A stretch of DNA of 62,753 nucleotides, taken from IMG/VR virus record IMGVR_UViG_3300031758_000014. One strand, 5' to 3'. This stretch comes from an uncultured virus (IMG/VR IMGVR_UViG_3300031758_000014) (taxonomy: Duplodnaviria; Heunggongvirae; Uroviricota; Caudoviricetes). The notes under the pieces were generated by a model. The model saw nothing but the letters and a program-made list of their open reading frames with translations, was not told where the DNA came from and made no database searches. Both the position numbers and the translations under genes were made by a program. Position 1 is the stretch's first letter. Each line of letters starts with the position of its first letter. Below, piece by piece: positions 3,482-39,980 of this stretch.

Positions 3482-3487
3482 AATTAA

Positions 3488-3627
3488 GTAGAGAAATTTA
3501 GATGAGTGTGTTTTTACTATGCTATCCATTACACCACCACCGCATTATTTTTATTTGAGCGGTGACCAGGACTCGAACCTGGATCAGTCGTTTGAAATAC
3601 GAAGTAACACTCGTTCTTTACTACTAC
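3488..3627 (-). ncRNA. Circularly permuted tRNA-Glu(TTC)-like RNA closed by a conserved stem module (YrlA-like architecture)
   Basis: Order on the RNA: module 5' strand, anticodon loop, T arm CCAGG TTCGAGT CCTGG, acceptor 3' strand TCACCGC, AT-rich loop, acceptor 5' strand GCGGTGG, D arm, module 3' strand. Confidence 0.8.
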
Positions 3628-3631
3628 TTTG

Positions 3632-3951: not shown

Positions 3952-3996
3952 AAATTGAAGGAAGACTAACCTTCGTTGTAACTTAAAGTCTTTTTG

Positions 3997-4084
3997 AGCA
4001 GGTAGTGGGATTCGAACCCACGATGTGAACCTTATCTGACCGGATTGGAAATCCGGAGCCATCGACCAACTAGGCGACACCTGC
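3997..4084 (-). tRNA. tRNA-Gly(TCC) with long variable region
   Basis: CCGGA TT TCC AA TCCGG; about 18-nt variable region; canonical T arm; U73. Confidence 0.8.
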
Positions 4085-4621
4085 ATGTATTTCTCTATGA
4101 CAATTAGAACAAACTAAAATACATTTATCTAATTCATTTTTTATTCTATCCCAAGAAAGATTATATTTCCCGGAGATTGTAAAATCTTTTTCACTCGGAT
4201 TGGTATGATGAAAATCAAGTGCTTGAATACATTTATTATACCCACATAAAATACATTCACCACCTTTATACTCAACCGATTTTATTTTTAACATTGTTCT
4301 TCTTTTCAATCTATAAATTTTAGAATTTTTTTTAGCTGCATCACTATCAACCCTCTTAATATCAGCATGTTTAATTACTGTTGTTTCTGAAATTCCAAAA
4401 TATATAGATGTTTCTTTTTTTGTGTGTGTTTTATAATATTCTTTTAATTGTAAAATTTCATCTTCATTTAACTCTTTATATTTTTTTAATCCAATATCAC
4501 TTAGTCCATTTTCCTTACACCATTTTGATACTATTGATTTTGAACATTTTAATATTTCACTTATTTTATTTAAACTGAATCCATTTTTTCTCAATTCAAT
4601 TATTTTACTTTCCAAACTCAT
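4070..4621 (-). CDS. HTH-HNH homing-endonuclease-like protein
   Basis: CxxC, LDFHH, CILVCSNCHREIH; stop codon overlaps the tRNA 5' end. Confidence 0.85.
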   Translation of the reverse strand: MSLESKIIELRKNGFSLNKISEILKCSKSIVSKWCKENGLSDIGLKKYKELNEDEILQLKEYYKTHTKKETSIYFGISETTVIKHADIKRVDSDAAKKNSKIYRLKRRTMLKIKSVEYKGGECILCGYNKCIQALDFHHTNPSEKDFTISGKYNLSWDRIKNELDKCILVCSNCHREIHAGVA

Positions 4622-5240: not shown

Positions 5241-5254
5241 GTTTTTATTTCATT

Positions 5255-5881
5255 TTATTTTTTTAATCTTCCCAATTCCCATCCTTCAGGGATTATCTCA
5301 TTTTTTTTTATTTTTTTATTCTCATACCCATTTGTTATCCAACAAGTTCCAAATTGAGAATTATTCTCACCTTTTTGAATTTCACTCAACTTTTCACTTA
5401 TCTTAATTTTAGATTCTTGTGAATGTTTTTTACCACTGAAACCTTTACTATTTAAATTATTTTTATTACCTTTTAGTTTATTTGATATTTTTTTTATCCA
5501 ATTATCTTTAAAATCAATATCTTTCCTTTTTTCATTTAGTCTATCATTACCAGCTTTAGAACATTTCATTTGATGTTCCTCATCTTTAAATCCACCACTA
5601 CCACCAACTCTCAAATTCATACAAAGAGTTTCATTTATTAGATTTGATGTAATAAGATCAATTTCCGCTTTTATCAGTTCATCTCTATTATCATAAAATT
5701 CCAATATTTCAATTTTAAAATTCTCTTTACCATACTTTCTTATTGAGTATCTTAATTTTTTACCAGATCCCAAATATCCATCGTTTAAATTATTTGTACT
5801 GTGCATACCATAATAATAATTATGATTTATCAAATTTGTCGTTTTATACAAATAGTGATAACATTTAATTTTTCTTGGCAT
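5255..5881 (-). CDS. Seg-like GIY-YIG homing endonuclease with NUMOD3-type motif
   Basis: YLYKTTNLIN..YYGMHST..DGYLGSG; KKHSQESKIKISE. Confidence 0.8.
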   Translation of the reverse strand: MPRKIKCYHYLYKTTNLINHNYYYGMHSTNNLNDGYLGSGKKLRYSIRKYGKENFKIEILEFYDNRDELIKAEIDLITSNLINETLCMNLRVGGSGGFKDEEHQMKCSKAGNDRLNEKRKDIDFKDNWIKKISNKLKGNKNNLNSKGFSGKKHSQESKIKISEKLSEIQKGENNSQFGTCWITNGYENKKIKKNEIIPEGWELGRLKK

Positions 5882-8571: not shown

Positions 8572-9366
8572 ATGAAATATACAATTAATGATACTAAATT
8601 TTTCCCAAAAACAAATGGGGTATATAAAATATCTTTCACCAACTCAATTAATGGAAAAGTTTATATAGGGAGTGCTTCTGGTGGATATGGATTTTATACT
8701 AGATGGAAATCACATATTTCAAGTTTAAAAAATAAAAAATCAGGAAATACAATATTGCAACTAGCAACAAATAAATATGATTTAAGTAATATTATATTTG
8801 AAGTTTTGGAATTTTGTGAAAAGGATGATTGTCTAAATAGAGAACAGTTCTATATAGATAAATATAACTCTTATAATTATGGGTATAATGGAAGACCAAA
8901 ATCATCAAATAATGGTTGCTTACCAATGAAAAAAGTAACAAAAGATAAAATATCAGATAAATGGAAAATAAAACGAGATTTTTATGTGGGTGAAGTTAGA
9001 AGATTGTATATTAATGAGAATAAAAATACTAGGGAAATATCAGATATTTTGAATATAAGTAGAACTTTTATTCAAAAAATATTCAAAGAGAATGAAATAG
9101 AACCTAGAAAAAATTTTGGTCTCCAAAAGGTAAGATTTTACCAATATAAAGACGGAATTTTAATAAAAGAATGGGATTCGATAAATGATTGTGTGATTAG
9201 AAATTCATTCAATTCTAATGGTATTAGAATTGTTTTAAATGGTCAATGTTTTTTTTACAAAAACTTTCATTTTAATTATTTAAAACTAGATGTAGATGAG
9301 ATAAATAAATTAGAAAATGAATTTAAAATTAAATCAAAATGTAGAAAATATTATTATATTAACTAG
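8572..9366 (+). CDS. GIY-YIG homing endonuclease
   Basis: GVYKI...VYIGSA, R..H, REQFYID, YGYN. Confidence 0.85.
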   Translation: MKYTINDTKFFPKTNGVYKISFTNSINGKVYIGSASGGYGFYTRWKSHISSLKNKKSGNTILQLATNKYDLSNIIFEVLEFCEKDDCLNREQFYIDKYNSYNYGYNGRPKSSNNGCLPMKKVTKDKISDKWKIKRDFYVGEVRRLYINENKNTREISDILNISRTFIQKIFKENEIEPRKNFGLQKVRFYQYKDGILIKEWDSINDCVIRNSFNSNGIRIVLNGQCFFYKNFHFNYLKLDVDEINKLENEFKIKSKCRKYYYIN

Positions 9367-14904: not shown

Positions 14905-14938
14905 ATAAATTATAAAGCTATTTATTTAAAAAGTTTAG

Positions 14939-15027
14939 TCTAAGTGATGGGACTCGAACCCACATAGAACTTTTACATTCATTCCTGATCCCAAATCAGG
15001 TCGGCGACCAATTGCCTACACACCTAG
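14939..15027 (-). tRNA. tRNA-Pro(TGG) with long variable region
   Basis: CCTGA TT TGG GA TCAGG; about 20-nt variable region. Confidence 0.8.
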
Positions 15028-15365: not shown

Positions 15366-16010
15366 TTAATTTAATTCATTTTCATATATTTTTATCCATT
15401 TTCTTATAGCATTATCACTAACACCATATTTTCTACCAGTTGAAGAGTATCCATTTTTTATAATTTCTGCCTTTAAAACTTCATAACTCGGTCTTTCCAC
15501 TTTTCTACGACTTAATCTAACTTTACTTTTCTTTTTTATATCTTTTTTTCTACTAATATTTTTACCACAATGAGTTTCTAGTCCAGCATTACAGTTAGGA
15601 CAAACTATTCTCAAATTTTCTAATCTATTATCATTATATACACCATTTATATGGTCTAAAATTAGAGAGATTTTCATACCATTCCAATTTTCATCCTGAC
15701 CACAAATCTCACATACTCTATTTTTAAGACCATCTTCATATAATCTATTTTTTAAGTGTGTTCTTGAATAGGTTGAATTTTCCACCAAAACTAAGGATAG
15801 ATCAATTTTACTATTTCTCATCTTATTTACCATAACCTCCCATTTCTGAGTGAAGTGAGAAGTGTCAATGTTGTATATTTCTAAATACTTTTTTATTGTC
15901 TTAAAATTACCACCAGCACTTCTTAGTCCAATGTTTTCAAGAGCTTCTTTTAAGCTATTAGATTTTTTTACTATTTCTTCTAATAAATCTTTTTCCCATT
16001 TTATTTTCAT
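15366..16010 (-). CDS. HNH endonuclease with C-terminal HTH
   Basis: CEICG..LDHING..DNRLENLRIVCPNC; GVSDNAIRKW. Confidence 0.85.
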   Translation of the reverse strand: MKIKWEKDLLEEIVKKSNSLKEALENIGLRSAGGNFKTIKKYLEIYNIDTSHFTQKWEVMVNKMRNSKIDLSLVLVENSTYSRTHLKNRLYEDGLKNRVCEICGQDENWNGMKISLILDHINGVYNDNRLENLRIVCPNCNAGLETHCGKNISRKKDIKKKSKVRLSRRKVERPSYEVLKAEIIKNGYSSTGRKYGVSDNAIRKWIKIYENELN

Positions 16011-20159: not shown

Positions 20160-20165
20160 AAATAA

Positions 20166-20269
20166 ATAGAGGAAAGTTTCAAAGAGTGAATGTGGATTTG
20201 AACCACTAAGTTTGATTTTAAGTCAAATTGTAAACCATTTACGAAGTAACTCTTTTGATCACCATCTAT
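20166..20269 (-). ncRNA. tRNA-like RNA (TAA anticodon loop) whose acceptor stem is replaced by the conserved stem module
   Basis: ATAGA TGGTGA TCAAAAGAGT TACTT, then D/anticodon/T hairpins, then ACTCTTTGA AACTTTCC TCTAT. Confidence 0.7.
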
Positions 20270-20273
20270 TTAG

Positions 20274-20596: not shown

Positions 20597-21307
20597 TTAT
20601 TTTAACCATTTTCTTATAGTGTTATCAGAAACACCATATTTTCTACCAACCGATGAATATCCTAATTCAGATACCTCATGCTTAAGTTCTTCTATATCTG
20701 GTCTAATATTTTTTCGTTGTAGTAGTTTATAACATATATTACAATTAGTGGATTTTGAATTCATGAAATTACCACAACTACATTTTTTTTTATTTTCTTT
20801 TATTTTTTTCTCTTTCTCTTTTACTTTCTTTTTATTATTTTCACTCTTTGTCTTTTTACCAGAATAATTATCTGTTTTAGAATGACAATTTGGACATAAT
20901 ATCATTAGATTACTTAGATTATTATTAAATCTATCACCATCTATATGATGTAACTCAATTGGTATCTTCTCACCTAACCACTCACTTAAATTACAACTCT
21001 CACATATGTGATTTTTTATCCCGTCTTCTATTAACTTATTCTTTAATTTATGACTTGATAAATAAATATTATTATTTATATAATAAAGAGCTTCTTTTCT
21101 ACTATTTGATATTTTATACCCTTTAGCCCCTTGATTACCAAAATATTCAATACCCATTATATCTAAGTATGAATTAAGTGTGGAGTATCTACAATTTAAT
21201 ATTTTACATATTTCTATTTTTGGTTTATTTTCACTAACCATACTAATTATCAAATCTCTTTTCTCTAATATATCATGTCTCATTTTTTTTAATTCTTTTT
21301 TATACAC
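20597..21307 (-). CDS. HNH endonuclease with C-terminal HTH
   Basis: CESC..ELHHIDGD..NN...LCPNCHS; GVSDNTIRKW. Confidence 0.85.
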   Translation of the reverse strand: MYKKELKKMRHDILEKRDLIISMVSENKPKIEICKILNCRYSTLNSYLDIMGIEYFGNQGAKGYKISNSRKEALYYINNNIYLSSHKLKNKLIEDGIKNHICESCNLSEWLGEKIPIELHHIDGDRFNNNLSNLMILCPNCHSKTDNYSGKKTKSENNKKKVKEKEKKIKENKKKCSCGNFMNSKSTNCNICYKLLQRKNIRPDIEELKHEVSELGYSSVGRKYGVSDNTIRKWLK

Positions 21308-21662: not shown

Positions 21663-21670
21663 ATTTTTTG

Positions 21671-21755
21671 TCGGTAGGGTGGGATTTGAACCCACGTTAT
21701 ACTTTCGTATCCAGTGTATCAGACTGGTCCCTGAAAACCGCTCGGGTACCTACCG
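21671..21755 (-). tRNA. tRNA-Ile(GAT) with long variable arm
   Basis: CCAGT CT GAT AC ACTGG; ATAC GAAA GTAT variable hairpin. Confidence 0.8.
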
Positions 21756-22315
21756 TTTAATCTATCTAATCTTTTTTGTTCTTCTAAATTGAAATGTATT
21801 TCACCATGACAATTTCTACAAACTAAAATACATTTATCAACTTCACTTTTTAATTTCTCAAAAGAGTTTGTTTTTCCACTAATTGTAAAGTCTTTCTCTT
21901 CGGGGTTTAAATGGTGGAATTCTAATGATGTTATACATTTGTTATAACCACATATTTCACAATTATTACCTTTATACTCTACTAATTTTATTTTAACTCT
22001 TCTTCTCCATTCTATTACATTTCTCGAATTTCTATTATCTTCTCTTAATTTATCTGATTTATTTTTATATCTTTTAATTGTACTTATAGATAAGTTAAAT
22101 TTATCAGAAGCCTCTTTTATACTATGATTTTCACAATATTTTTTTATTTCATTTATATCCAAATCATTTACTTTTTTAAGTTTACCAATATCATTCATTC
22201 CATATCTCTTACAATGATATCCAATTGTCGATTTAGATATTTTTAGTTCTTTACTTATTTCATCATAACTTTTACCTTCATTTCTTAATTCAATTATTTT
22301 ATCTTTTGTTTTCAT
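21719..22315 (-). CDS. HTH-HNH endonuclease (paralogue of 4070..4621)
   Basis: CEICGYNKC..LEFHH..CILVCRNCHGEIH; 3' end overlaps tRNA-Ile. Confidence 0.85.
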   Translation of the reverse strand: MKTKDKIIELRNEGKSYDEISKELKISKSTIGYHCKRYGMNDIGKLKKVNDLDINEIKKYCENHSIKEASDKFNLSISTIKRYKNKSDKLREDNRNSRNVIEWRRRVKIKLVEYKGNNCEICGYNKCITSLEFHHLNPEEKDFTISGKTNSFEKLKSEVDKCILVCRNCHGEIHFNLEEQKRLDRLNGRYPSGFQGPV

Positions 22316-22457: not shown

Positions 22458-22469
22458 TTTATATTTTTG

Positions 22470-22557
22470 AGGGCCCGGTAGGATTCGAACCTACTTTATT
22501 TCAATTTTTCATACAGTGATTAACAGTCACCAGCTAAAACCATTAAGCTACTGACCC
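22470..22557 (-). tRNA. tRNA-Asn(GTT) with long variable region
   Basis: GGTGA CT GTT AA TCACT; about 20-nt A-rich variable region. Confidence 0.72.
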
Positions 22558-23656: not shown

Positions 23657-23743
23657 AGGAAGAAGTGGGAGTCGAACCCAGCCCGAGTTAACGAGCCCTT
23701 GTTTTCCAAACAAGTGAGAGGACCACCTCTTCTCGCATCTTCC
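23657..23743 (-). tRNA. tRNA-Ser(GGA)
   Basis: CTTGT TT GGA AA ACAAG; long variable arm. Confidence 0.8.
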
Positions 23744-23745
23744 GT

Positions 23746-23832
23746 TGGCGGAGAGCAGAGTATTCGAAACCCACACGTTGTCGTGCCACTCGCTTAGCAG
23801 GCGGTGCTGAGGACCTCCTCAGTTTACTCTCC
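23746..23832 (-). tRNA. tRNA-Ser(GCT)
   Basis: CT GCT AA loop; long variable arm; GCCA end. Confidence 0.82.
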
Positions 23833-23840
23833 ATTTATTT

Positions 23841-23927
23841 TGGCGGAAGAGTGAGGTATCGATCCCCATACCTTTCGGTACCACTAGTTTTCAAGACTAG
23901 GTCAAGCGCCAGCTTAATTACTCTTCC
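23841..23927 (-). tRNA. tRNA-Ser(TGA)
   Basis: CTAGT CT TGA AA ACTAG; long variable arm; GCCA end. Confidence 0.85.
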
Positions 23928-24105: not shown

Positions 24106-24138
24106 AAAAAAACCCTCAGATTATTAATCCGAGGGTTT
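24106..24138 (-). terminator. attenuator terminator of tRNA cluster D
   Basis: AAACCCUCGGAUUA/UAAUCUGAGGGUUU hairpin plus U-run. Confidence 0.88.
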
Positions 24139-24296: not shown

Positions 24297-24509
24297 CTAA
24301 TTTATTATTTCTTTTATTTCTTCTATTGTAAAAAGTTTACCTTTATTATCATTTTCACATTTAGTATAACCTTCAATAAATGCTTCAATTATATTTTTAT
24401 CGGTTATTCCTTTTTCTTCTGCCCATTTTTGAGCTTTCTTTTCAATCTTAGAAGGTTTTCTTCTATGATATGGTGTTAAGTCAGTATAGTTATCACTTCT
24501 TTCTGGCAT
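24297..24509 (-). CDS. hypothetical protein
   Basis: ORF track. Confidence 0.55.
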   Translation of the reverse strand: MPERSDNYTDLTPYHRRKPSKIEKKAQKWAEEKGITDKNIIEAFIEGYTKCENDNKGKLFTIEEIKEIIN

Positions 24510-24526
24510 ATTTGTTTTTTATTTTT

Positions 24527-24657
24527 TGGTAGGGAGATGGGACTCGAACCCATGACCACGCGGTTAACAGCCGAAGTAACTCTTCTAATCAACACTCTTT
24601 CGAGGTAAAGTTATAGAAAAGTAAAGTACGTGCTCTACCAACTGAGCTACTCCCTAC
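24527..24657 (-). tRNA. tRNA-Asn(GTT) interrupted by a 55-nt structured insertion between positions 28 and 29
   Basis: Removing 24574-24628 restores CGCGG CT GTT AA CCGCG; the insert is the conserved module closed by CTC-GAAA-GAG. Confidence 0.8.
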
Positions 24658-24674
24658 ATATATATTTTAATTTG

Positions 24675-24746
24675 TTGCCCCGGTGGGGATTGAACCCACG
24701 ATCCCCTGATTAAGAGTCAGGTGCTTTACCACTCAGCTACAAGGCA
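24675..24746 (-). tRNA. tRNA-Lys(CTT)
   Basis: CCTGA CT CTT AA TCAGG. Confidence 0.88.
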
Positions 24747-25492: not shown

Positions 25493-25521
25493 AAAAAAAC
25501 CCAAGTCTTTTGAACTTGGGT
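25493..25521 (-). terminator. attenuator terminator of tRNA cluster E
   Basis: ACCCAAGU/ACUUGGGU hairpin plus U-run. Confidence 0.86.
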
Positions 25522-25543
25522 CTGTTTGTAGTTATATTTTATT

Positions 25544-39656: not shown

Positions 39657-39980
39657 ATGATTTTACAAATATTTTATATTGTTTTTTTGATGTTTATTTG
39701 GTTTAAAACTGATTTCTTTGTGGAATATTCAAAAATATTTAAACTTTCTAAGTTATTTAAAATCCAAAATTGGAATGATTATAGAAATATAAATCCTAAA
39801 ATAAGTTATTTAGAGTATATTAGAATAAAGCATTCAACATTTTTAGTCAAGATTATTACTTGTGAATATTGTCTTCTTTTCTGGATAGTTTTAATTAGTT
39901 GTTTATTTATGAAAAATATAATATATACACCATTTATATATGTGGTGAGTCTTTTAATATATAAATTGTTATGGAAATAA
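39657..39980 (+). CDS. membrane protein with CxxCxxFW motif
   Basis: Hydrophobic segments; ITCEYCLLFW. Confidence 0.6.
   Translation: MILQIFYIVFLMFIWFKTDFFVEYSKIFKLSKLFKIQNWNDYRNINPKISYLEYIRIKHSTFLVKIITCEYCLLFWIVLISCLFMKNIIYTPFIYVVSLLIYKLLWK

Follow-up and report, generated by a model that had tools for sequence, protein, structure and literature searches.

The stretch of DNA analysed here, hereafter the window, is the 62,753-nt IMG/VR record IMGVR_UViG_3300031758_000014, which derives from an uncultured virus of the Caudoviricetes. On its minus strand it contains a 128-nt gene (24529-24656) with the shape of a tRNA and a 55-nt structured insert in the anticodon stem, together with two other tRNA-like RNAs, named here RNA B and RNA C. 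We consider it likely that the 128-nt gene encodes a phage Y RNA of the YrlA class laid out in ordinary tRNA order, and neither a decoding tRNA nor an intron-bearing gene. At the level of sequence and predicted structure, its architecture and its homology to permuted YrlA-like RNAs are established.

The Rfam tRNA model matched the interval 24529-24656 of the minus strand at 43.6 bits (gathering threshold, 29 bits) with a complete cloverleaf, and left 68 nt unaligned within the anticodon arm. Read from its 5' end, the RNA runs UAGGGAG, UA, the D arm, A26, C27 G28, the 55-nt insert, C29 G30 G31 and the loop CUGUUAA, and it continues 3' of this loop with CCG CG, UGGUC, the T arm, CUCCCUA and a final C. 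The acceptor stem is open and has 7 bp with tRNA-type 5' and 3' ends, so that the order of the arms is not circularly permuted. As encoded, the anticodon stem consists of 2 bp, a three-way junction and a 3-bp hairpin, instead of an uninterrupted 5-bp stem. The fold of the insert begins with an inner stem of 9 bp, which is followed by an internal loop and a short bulged-U helix capped by GAAA. In comparison with the YrlA model consensus, the D and T arms carry the conserved family sequences GUAGCUCAGUUGGUAGAGC and GGGUUCGAGUCCC. The UUAC at 24576-24579 conforms to YUAY and is followed by the hairpin CGG CUGUUAA CCG, 5' of the T arm. The features are listed in Table 1.

Table 1. Coordinates of the RNA at 24529-24656, its parts, related RNAs and neighbouring features (window positions unless another sequence is named).
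Feature	Position	Strand	Basis or remark
Whole RNA, 128 nt, probable unpermuted 'A-type' tRNA-shaped Y RNA	24529-24656	-	Rfam tRNA and model R1 (159.1 bits)
Acceptor stem 5' strand, UAGGGAG	24650-24656	-	pairs 7/7 with 24530-24536
D arm, GCUC AGUUGGUA GAGC	24632-24647	-	agrees with D arm of Rfam YrlA consensus
C27 G28, pairing with C42 G43 (24559-24560)	24629-24630	-	anticodon-stem stub above three-way junction
55-nt insert, Y-RNA stem module closed as a hairpin	24574-24628	-	between positions 28 and 29
Inner stem 5' strand, ACUUUUCUA	24614-24622	-	pairs with UAGAAGAGU (24579-24587), 9 bp in fold
Distal helix, ACCUC / GAG-U-GU, one bulged U (24594)	24592-24606	-	GAAA loop 24598-24601
GUUGAU at the place of the GNCGAA motif	24588-24593	-	putative Rsr contact
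GUUACUUCG: inner-stem end, conserved YUAY (UUAC), first bases of next hairpin	24572-24580	-	
Anticodon-like hairpin, CGG CUGUUAA CCG, YrlA 'V' stem-loop	24561-24573	-	
T arm, AUGGG UUCGAGU CCCAU	24537-24553	-	Rfam search
Acceptor 3' strand, CUCCCUA, and base 73 (C)	24529-24536	-	no in-register encoded CCA
RNA B, permuted YrlA-type tRNA mimic	3482-3630	-	direct reading and fold
RNA C, native-order tRNA-like RNA, stem module replacing acceptor stem	20160-20272	-	Rfam tRNA 26.9 bits, below gathering
Terminator-like hairpin	24110-24138	-	would close a unit of ten tRNAs, the Y RNA and a 70-aa open reading frame
Upstream terminator-like counterpart	25497-25523		consensus scan only
Homing endonuclease genes	4070-4621, 5255-5881, 8572-9366, 15366-16010, 20597-21307, 21719-22315		
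Long-arm tRNA-Gly(UCC), Pro(UGG), Ile(GAU), Asn(GUU)	3996-4084, 14938-15027, 21670-21755, 22469-22557	-	normal-length twin near each
crAss001 members	L389:4994-5137, 5249-5387		after gp96, annotated TROVE protein

The original prediction, made from the sequence alone, had called this gene a tRNA-Asn with an insert at position 28/29. Direct reading gave exactly the same insert limits (24574-24628), entry site and GAAA loop (24601 to 24598). In its default mode, without introns, ARAGORN did not call the gene; with introns it proposed the anticodon UUA and a 57-nt intron at 32/33, in a stem containing a G-U pair and a mismatch. We rejected this reading because the 28/29 reading provides five Watson-Crick pairs and is backed by the covariation described below. 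An alternative helix, in which G28-U-A pairs with the UAC of UUAC, is lost in members with U28 and was also dropped. The whole gene, insert included, is bridged by DNA contigs from three runs belonging to three studies, two of them with 0 differences, and the gene is identical in other viral contigs. Contig joints that omit 56-76 nt have sides of only ~20 nt, and those that were tabulated have other letters between the sides; they were read as ordinary tRNAs of other organisms and given no weight. A BLAST search of the 128-nt RNA against cultured phages returned matches to ordinary tRNA halves only.

The sequence GTTACTTCG is present three times in the window, once in each of the three RNAs and always on the minus strand (0.14 copies expected; none of 100 shuffles reached three). 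RNA B shows, in this order, a head, a hairpin with the loop AUUUCAA, the T arm, a 7-bp acceptor hairpin with a 15-nt loop, the D arm and a tail. RNA C has its arms in native order, with a D-like hairpin, an anticodon-like arm (loop CUUAAAA) and the T arm. Homologs of these RNAs were found in LR745206.1 and LR756502.1, two complete genomes of uncultured phages (634-642 kb) with helicases 75-76% identical to the helicase of the window. The homolog of RNA B in LR745206.1 is 81.6% identical and keeps all helices through compensatory changes; its loop is CUGCAAU, and the triplet in the hairpin loop is therefore GCA, versus UUC in the window. Compensatory changes were also observed in the homologs of RNA C in LR745206.1 and LR756502.1. 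The layout of RNA C is seen at L001, about 39860-39965, and at L237, about 1478-1590.

The insert and RNAs B and C are built on one plan, in which a terminal helix and a single bulged U precede two further pairs, an internal loop and an inner stem; UACUU and a hairpin closed by CG follow. The terminal helix is capped by GAAA in the insert, and in the related RNAs it is formed by the two ends of the RNA. The 3' half of the insert and the 5' head of RNA C share 17/20 identities (score 25), which none of 2000 shuffles equalled; its likeness to the head of RNA B is weak, as 153 of 2000 shuffles were as good. The insert had been described as a circular permutation of the module that flanks the RNAs at 3488 and 20166. 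The head match to the 20166 RNA and the shared structure uphold this description. It had also been proposed that the insert enters at the same 28/29 position as in the permuted Glu RNA; this position is possible, but the junction of RNA B has U on both sides and can also be read as 27/28. A minimal member, which contains the stem module around a small hairpin only (loop AUUUUAA) and no tRNA-like body, was seen in LR745206.1 near 342,979 (L005, about 1475-1560). It ends a tRNA array, as the RNA of the window does.

A scan of viral contigs for GTTACTTCG followed by a T-loop retrieved at least 127 stretches with at least 142 unique sites. By eye, most of the matching stretches have the layout of RNA B, and a bulged-U helix like that of the insert was seen in permuted relatives. 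With a strict pattern, the D arm was placed downstream only in 61, upstream only in 13, on both sides in 8 and on neither side in 60 of the 142 matches listed. The Rfam YrlA model matched 12 of 15 loci at E<0.001, below gathering, with 30-50.7 bits and a best E of 3e-9; several of these matches span the full model. The YrlA definition given in PMC4201824 includes GNCGAA(N)G near the 5' end, which is the proposed contact with Rsr; YUAY at the start of a small 'V' stem-loop; T and D arms, nearly invariant, on either side of a closed acceptor-like hairpin; and an adjoining Ro60 gene. The phage family agrees with this definition, with UUAC as YUAY and GCCGAA, GGUGAA, GGCGUA or AGUGUA after the bulged U. 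At the GNCGAAN0-1G site the copy in the window reads GUUGAUUAG, its close homologs L176 and L208 read GCCGAAUAG, and other members have GGUGAAG, GGCGUAG or AGUGUAG. On these sequence features, the 55-nt insert is the stem module of a YrlA-related phage RNA family. In one array (L104 / L152), a local hairpin arises between the tail of a permuted unit and the head of the unit that follows, and RNase P cuts in the acceptor loops of this array would free molecules in tRNA order.

The layout of the RNA at 24529-24656 is not unique to the window. A second pattern, with the D arm 35-65 nt upstream of the motif, was found in 88 stretches at 71 unique sites, and in 30 of these 71 the 7 nt before the D arm pair 7/7 with the 7 nt after the T arm; the other 41 sites are arrays, other layouts or cases in which the script missed the T arm. 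Model R1, built from the copy in the window and its close homologs L176 and L208, recovered 33 distinct full-length members at E<=1e-10. A MAFFT alignment of 29 unpermuted members misaligned the inserts, and was replaced by a model-based alignment (A5). In A5, fitted to the structure of the model, 95.7% of the cells were paired (34-45% with slid partners) and the covariation score was 0.758, versus 0.10-0.13, with two-sided changes in 30 of 35 pairs. None of 500 shuffles reached any of the measures observed. The acceptor stem (helix 1) was 98.2% paired over the 33 relatives, and all 7 of its pairs change on both sides. The D arm (helix 2), the anticodon-like hairpin (helix 7) and the T arm (helix 8) were 100%, 95.8% and 99.4% paired, the first value being fixed in part by the search. 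The insert helices 4-6 were 91.4%, 90.2% and 95.1% paired, and 8 of the 9 pairs of the inner stem change on both sides. The stub of the anticodon stem also covaries: pair 28:42 is G-C in 15, U-A in 13 and A-U in 1 sequence, and pair 27:43 is C-G in 27, U-A in 3 and G-C in 2.

Independently of the fitting of A5, homologs L176 and L208 keep the insert and all helices, with GCAA in place of GAAA and with G-C as the pair next to the bulge, where the copy in the window has A-U, and they read GCCGAA where YrlA has GNCGAA. These results show that an unpermuted layout, in which the 7-bp acceptor stem is open and a loop closes the docking stem, is conserved in 33 phage lineages. The insert could have turned out to be unconserved and unrelated to the other two copies on formal alignment, an outcome foreseen in the original prediction; the covariation in the 33 members and the 17/20 head match to the 20166 RNA speak against it.

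Both layouts of the family are specifically associated with genes for TROVE (Ro60/Rsr) proteins. A TROVE domain is encoded in 43 of 50 contigs that bear the motif, and in 26 of 27 among those at least 90% complete. For the contigs with the unpermuted form the values are 23 of 32 and, at the same completeness, 9 of 11. In at least 16 of these 32 contigs (coordinates read by eye), the unpermuted form lies within 4 kb of the TROVE gene on the same strand, in many cases within 1 kb. In contrast, none of 46 control viral contigs with an ordinary tRNA pattern has a TROVE domain. The cultured Bacteroides phage crAss001 (MH675552.1) contains two unannotated members (56.1 and 38.6 bits) that start about 270 nt past gp96, on the same strand. 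The TROVE gene gp96 is listed among the early genes of crAss001 (PMC8375218).

Several relatives of the window also encode TROVE proteins. In LR745206.1, a 483-aa TROVE open reading frame is located about 100 kb from the tRNA islands. Homologs of this protein, 68-84% identical, were found in 22 contigs, three of which have helicases 75-80% identical to that of the window, and TROVE is present in 4 of 5 relatives with a helicase in this range of identity. One contig has both a TROVE gene of the LR745206.1 type and a 102-bit homolog of the RNA at 24529-24656. The suggestion that the insert is a protein-docking arm linking normal tRNAs to YrlA-like RNAs is supported, given a YrlA-related module, a TROVE association that is absent from controls, and a recurring, covarying layout.

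Several observations weigh against reading the gene at 24529-24656 as a Y RNA. A tblastn search of the 62.7-kb window found no TROVE gene at E<=10, and hence no same-strand TROVE gene within ~4 kb of the RNA. There is also none in three fragments (44, 77 and 172 kb) in which this RNA or RNA B recurs unchanged, nor in LR756502.1, as close to the window as LR745206.1, which was searched by Pfam and with the LR745206.1 protein and yet keeps the C-type RNA. The Rfam YrlA model (RF02553) does not match RNA B, RNA C or the RNA at 24529-24656 (a spurious 16-bit hit only for the latter), and none of 20 family loci reaches its gathering threshold of 69 bits. The copy in the window has GUUGAU instead of GNCGAA; in our count 4 of the 5 specified positions match (G, G and the first A are kept, C is replaced by U and the last A by U). 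The 5' half of the insert shows no significant sequence likeness to the U-rich tails of the two other RNAs (1413 and 690 of 2000 shuffles as good). As a consequence of this, and of the weak match to the head of RNA B, the permutation is supported by the head sequence of RNA C and the shared structure.

As for the fold, the predicted structure of the single sequence is weakly better than that of shuffles, both for the insert (z -1.91, 9 of 200 shuffles as good) and for the whole RNA (z -1.47, 14 of 200), so that the support for the structure comes from the relatives. A5 was fitted to the model structure, and both search patterns fixed GUUACUUCG and the second also the D arm, which inflates conservation in the columns concerned; the invariance of the D arm in A5 arises by construction. 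No unpermuted member was found in the complete relatives LR745206.1 and LR756502.1. Finally, binding to Rsr, processing and CCA addition are predictions for the RNA at 24529-24656. Its partner could be the product of a phage gene that lies outside the window, or the Rsr of the host; the latter is possible since Bacteroides thetaiotaomicron, included as a control, has a TROVE gene.

If the gene does encode a Y RNA, its tRNA-shaped body (acceptor, D and T arms) would be the effector module and the 55-nt insert the predicted binding stem for the ring protein Ro60/Rsr, which elsewhere is a stem formed by the two ends of the RNA. Here the binding stem would be closed by a GNRA loop and would branch at the three-way junction of the anticodon stem, next to a short hairpin resembling an anticodon loop. 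The RNA may be released from the transcript of a tRNA operon by RNase P and 3' processing, and CCA may be added as for the neighbouring tRNAs; this is suggested by its position between terminator-like hairpins together with ten tRNAs. In Mycobacterium smegmatis, RNase P cuts the 7-bp acceptor hairpin of YrlA, and 3' processing and CCA addition follow (PMC4201824). RNA B has a 7-bp acceptor hairpin too. The RNA at 24529-24656 would use the bulged-U helix and the GNYGNA stretch to bind an Rsr of phage or host origin and would present its tRNA-like body to a partner, and it would neither be spliced nor decode Asn. With regard to its origin, exactly this layout results when two permuted units in tandem are read starting from the middle of the pair. 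Since tail-to-head pairing between neighbouring units is seen in arrays (L104), a duplication is plausible.

A bolder version, which we regard as unlikely, is that the unpermuted forms are genuine hybrids that undergo processing, CCA tailing and perhaps aminoacylation in the manner of tRNAs while Ro60 holds them. Phages from crAss-like viruses to 600-kb giants would then use them to tether Ro60, and through Ro60 a nuclease such as PNPase, to the tRNA-handling machinery; alternatively, they could offer an anticodon-loop decoy to host defences that cut tRNAs. Among the loops of 84 simple CGN-7-NCG family hairpins, 79 have U33, 83 have a purine at 37 and 76 have A38. Positions 36-38 are UAA in 51 and GGA in 16 (67 of 84 together), and U33-G34-U35 is frequent. 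The endings U36-A37-A38 and G36-G37-A38 are sequence contexts that act as determinants for t6A37 and m1G37, which would agree with a loop shaped for recognition by tRNA enzymes; together with the frequent U33-G34-U35, they correspond to the contexts of the t6A37, m1G37 and queuosine enzymes.

Also unlikely is the alternative that the gene encodes a functional, chargeable tRNA-Asn with a permanent docking arm, which is aminoacylated and then serves in translation, or is delivered or sequestered by Rsr. The perfect 7-bp acceptor stem, the canonical D and T arms and the loop CUGUUAA, with U33 and A37, agree with it, and so does the pair U1-A72, which the tRNA-Asn of E. coli has as well. Furthermore, NCCA directly 3' of the acceptor stem is encoded in 4 of 30 unpermuted members (L170, L177, L184 and L198, two of which are close relatives), versus about 0.5 expected. 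The YrlA of M. smegmatis gains CCA in vivo and, according to its authors, could be aminoacylated (PMC4201824). Against an Asn identity, the triplet in the loop varies among unpermuted members (GUU, AUG, GAU, UCU, GAG and others), and GUU is just the commonest across the family. Since CUGUUAA is the commonest loop of the family (19 of the 84 hairpins), it is no evidence of Asn identity, and the hairpin probably is an anticodon-loop mimic with a skewed repertoire and not an Asn marker. Base 73 of the RNA is C, whereas the asparaginyl-tRNA synthetase (AsnRS) of E. coli uses G73, and two ordinary tRNA-Asn(GUU) genes are already present in the window. In addition, a 3-bp hairpin off a three-way junction cannot occupy the place of the anticodon arm if the long stem stacks on the body, as it does in the YrlA crystal structure (bioRxiv 10.1101/312249).

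It is quite improbable that the gene is a tRNA-Asn with a small 28/29 intron, spliced by protein or by itself, and that its permuted relatives are permuted tRNA genes that are cut and rejoined. Excision of exactly 55 nt would restore an anticodon stem of 5 bp and leave a perfect tRNA-Asn; the break of RNA B falls at the same position or next to it, its loop is UUC, and ARAGORN found no tRNA-Glu gene in the window. Intron-bearing and permuted genes that share one position also recall the tRNA genes of red algae and archaea. However, in the permuted relatives the paired 5' and 3' ends consist of this very module, which for this reason is not an intron in them. By inspection of sequence and fold there is no bulge-helix-bulge, that is, no two 3-nt bulges 4 bp apart, and the helix-to-junction distances differ by one base between the RNA at 24529-24656 and RNA B. 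In 24480-24700, an Rfam search at E<=1 gave no hit to group I or to any other ribozyme or intron family, RtcB was not found in LR745206.1, and the splicing endonuclease domain PF01974 is absent from four related records, with matches in the control genomes. The homolog of RNA B in LR745206.1 has a GCA loop, not UUC, in a genome with several ordinary tRNA-Glu genes. Also, the family loops are skewed to CTGTTAA and to UAA or GGA at positions 36-38, unlike a tRNA set, and splicing leaves the tight TROVE linkage unexplained. The mini-intron or ribozyme that had been contemplated for the insert is thus not supported.

Least probable of all is a dead tRNA gene broken by a small repeat or mobile hairpin with TACTT as the target duplication: UACUU at both ends of the insert, homing endonuclease genes among the tRNA clusters and the absence of the gene from both complete relatives would fit, but body and insert are kept together in 33 distinct lineages with compensatory changes in both, every helix is kept in L176 and L208, identical copies occur in several independent assemblies, and the 3' UACUU belongs to the family-wide GUUACUUCG and is no duplication.

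The Y RNA that we favour for this locus resembles YrlA (RF02553; Salmonella Typhimurium, M. smegmatis and mycobacteriophages; PMC4201824) in its tRNA-like body with near-invariant D and T arms, in the long stem with a GNCGAA-like stretch on its 5' strand, and in the YUAY before a small hairpin ahead of the T arm. A gene beside a same-strand TROVE gene is a likeness of the class and not of the copy in the window. Published YrlA RNAs are circularly permuted, with the acceptor stem as a closed hairpin and the RNA ends in the Ro60-binding stem, and these accounts describe them without a free CCA end and without an anticodon loop (PMC4201824, bioRxiv 10.1101/312249). In contrast, the RNA of the window has an open acceptor stem, a tetraloop-capped binding stem and a small hairpin with a 7-nt loop of the anticodon type. 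Yrn1 of Deinococcus radiodurans, as presented in PMC4201824, is similar to RNA C in its native-order tRNA-like part and anticodon-like arm; its Ro60-binding stem replaces the acceptor stem, whereas the RNA at 24529-24656 keeps an intact acceptor, its binding stem being a branch of the anticodon stem. The Y-like RNAs Yrl1 and Yrl2 of the Thermus phage phiLo are encoded by a phage too and adjoin its Ro60 gene; they contain a stem-bulge-stem as well as a CGAA motif, and they bind the phage Ro60 and the host PNPase; the description in PMC12135203 is of 5'-3' stem RNAs and includes no tRNA-order body with a free acceptor end.

Outside the Y RNAs, the RNAs compared here share two traits with the permuted and intron-bearing tRNA genes of archaea and red algae: one site serves as permutation break or insert, and a paired stem lies at the junction. 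Those genes have bulge-helix-bulge motifs, a splicing endonuclease, a ligase and decoding tRNAs, none of which was found here. The genes for transfer-messenger RNA (tmRNA) exist in one-piece and two-piece (permuted) orders, the permuted order being the exception. This is another tRNA-like family with standard and permuted layouts, although it differs in family and function, and in YrlA the permuted order is the norm. A literature search returned no account of an unpermuted YrlA; the reviews PMC10870794 and PMC6047535 and the supplements of Chen et al. 2014 may describe variants. What is most likely new is the unpermuted, tRNA-order layout with free ends, since permuted mimics of the YrlA type are already known.

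A natural and widespread form with real tRNA ends makes it possible to test whether Y RNAs are substrates of tRNA pathways (RNase P, CCA addition, charging, EF-Tu), which bears on the role of their tRNA-like half. The coexistence of two layouts provides a concrete route by which these RNAs could have originated from tRNAs or from each other, through tandem duplication and new ends. Because the form adjoins the early TROVE gene of a cultured gut phage, crAss001 offers a tractable system. For annotation, such genes are missed, or can be miscalled as intron-bearing or suppressor tRNAs, as by ARAGORN in this case.

The window is phage DNA with 28% G+C, and its genes include baseplate and lysis genes, a UvsW-type helicase, a Clp protease and a transaldolase. 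According to ARAGORN, it has 33-34 tRNA genes, all of them on the minus strand. The RNA at 24529-24656 is probably co-transcribed with ten tRNAs and the small open reading frame that lie between the two terminator-like hairpins. Genes for HNH, GIY-YIG and NUMOD-type homing endonucleases are scattered through the tRNA and Y-RNA clusters. Four tRNA genes of 86-90 nt, for Gly(UCC), Pro(UGG), Ile(GAU) and Asn(GUU), have long extra arms in the variable region, which is unusual for these amino acids. More long-arm tRNA-like genes, absent from the default ARAGORN output, are present on the minus strand at 23658-23927, two of them with an encoded CCA. The best Rfam match for two of these genes was tRNA-Sec (47.3 and 39.7 bits), and the loops of the group, read by eye as CUUGAAA, CUGCUAA and UUGGAAA, point to tRNAs of the Ser type.

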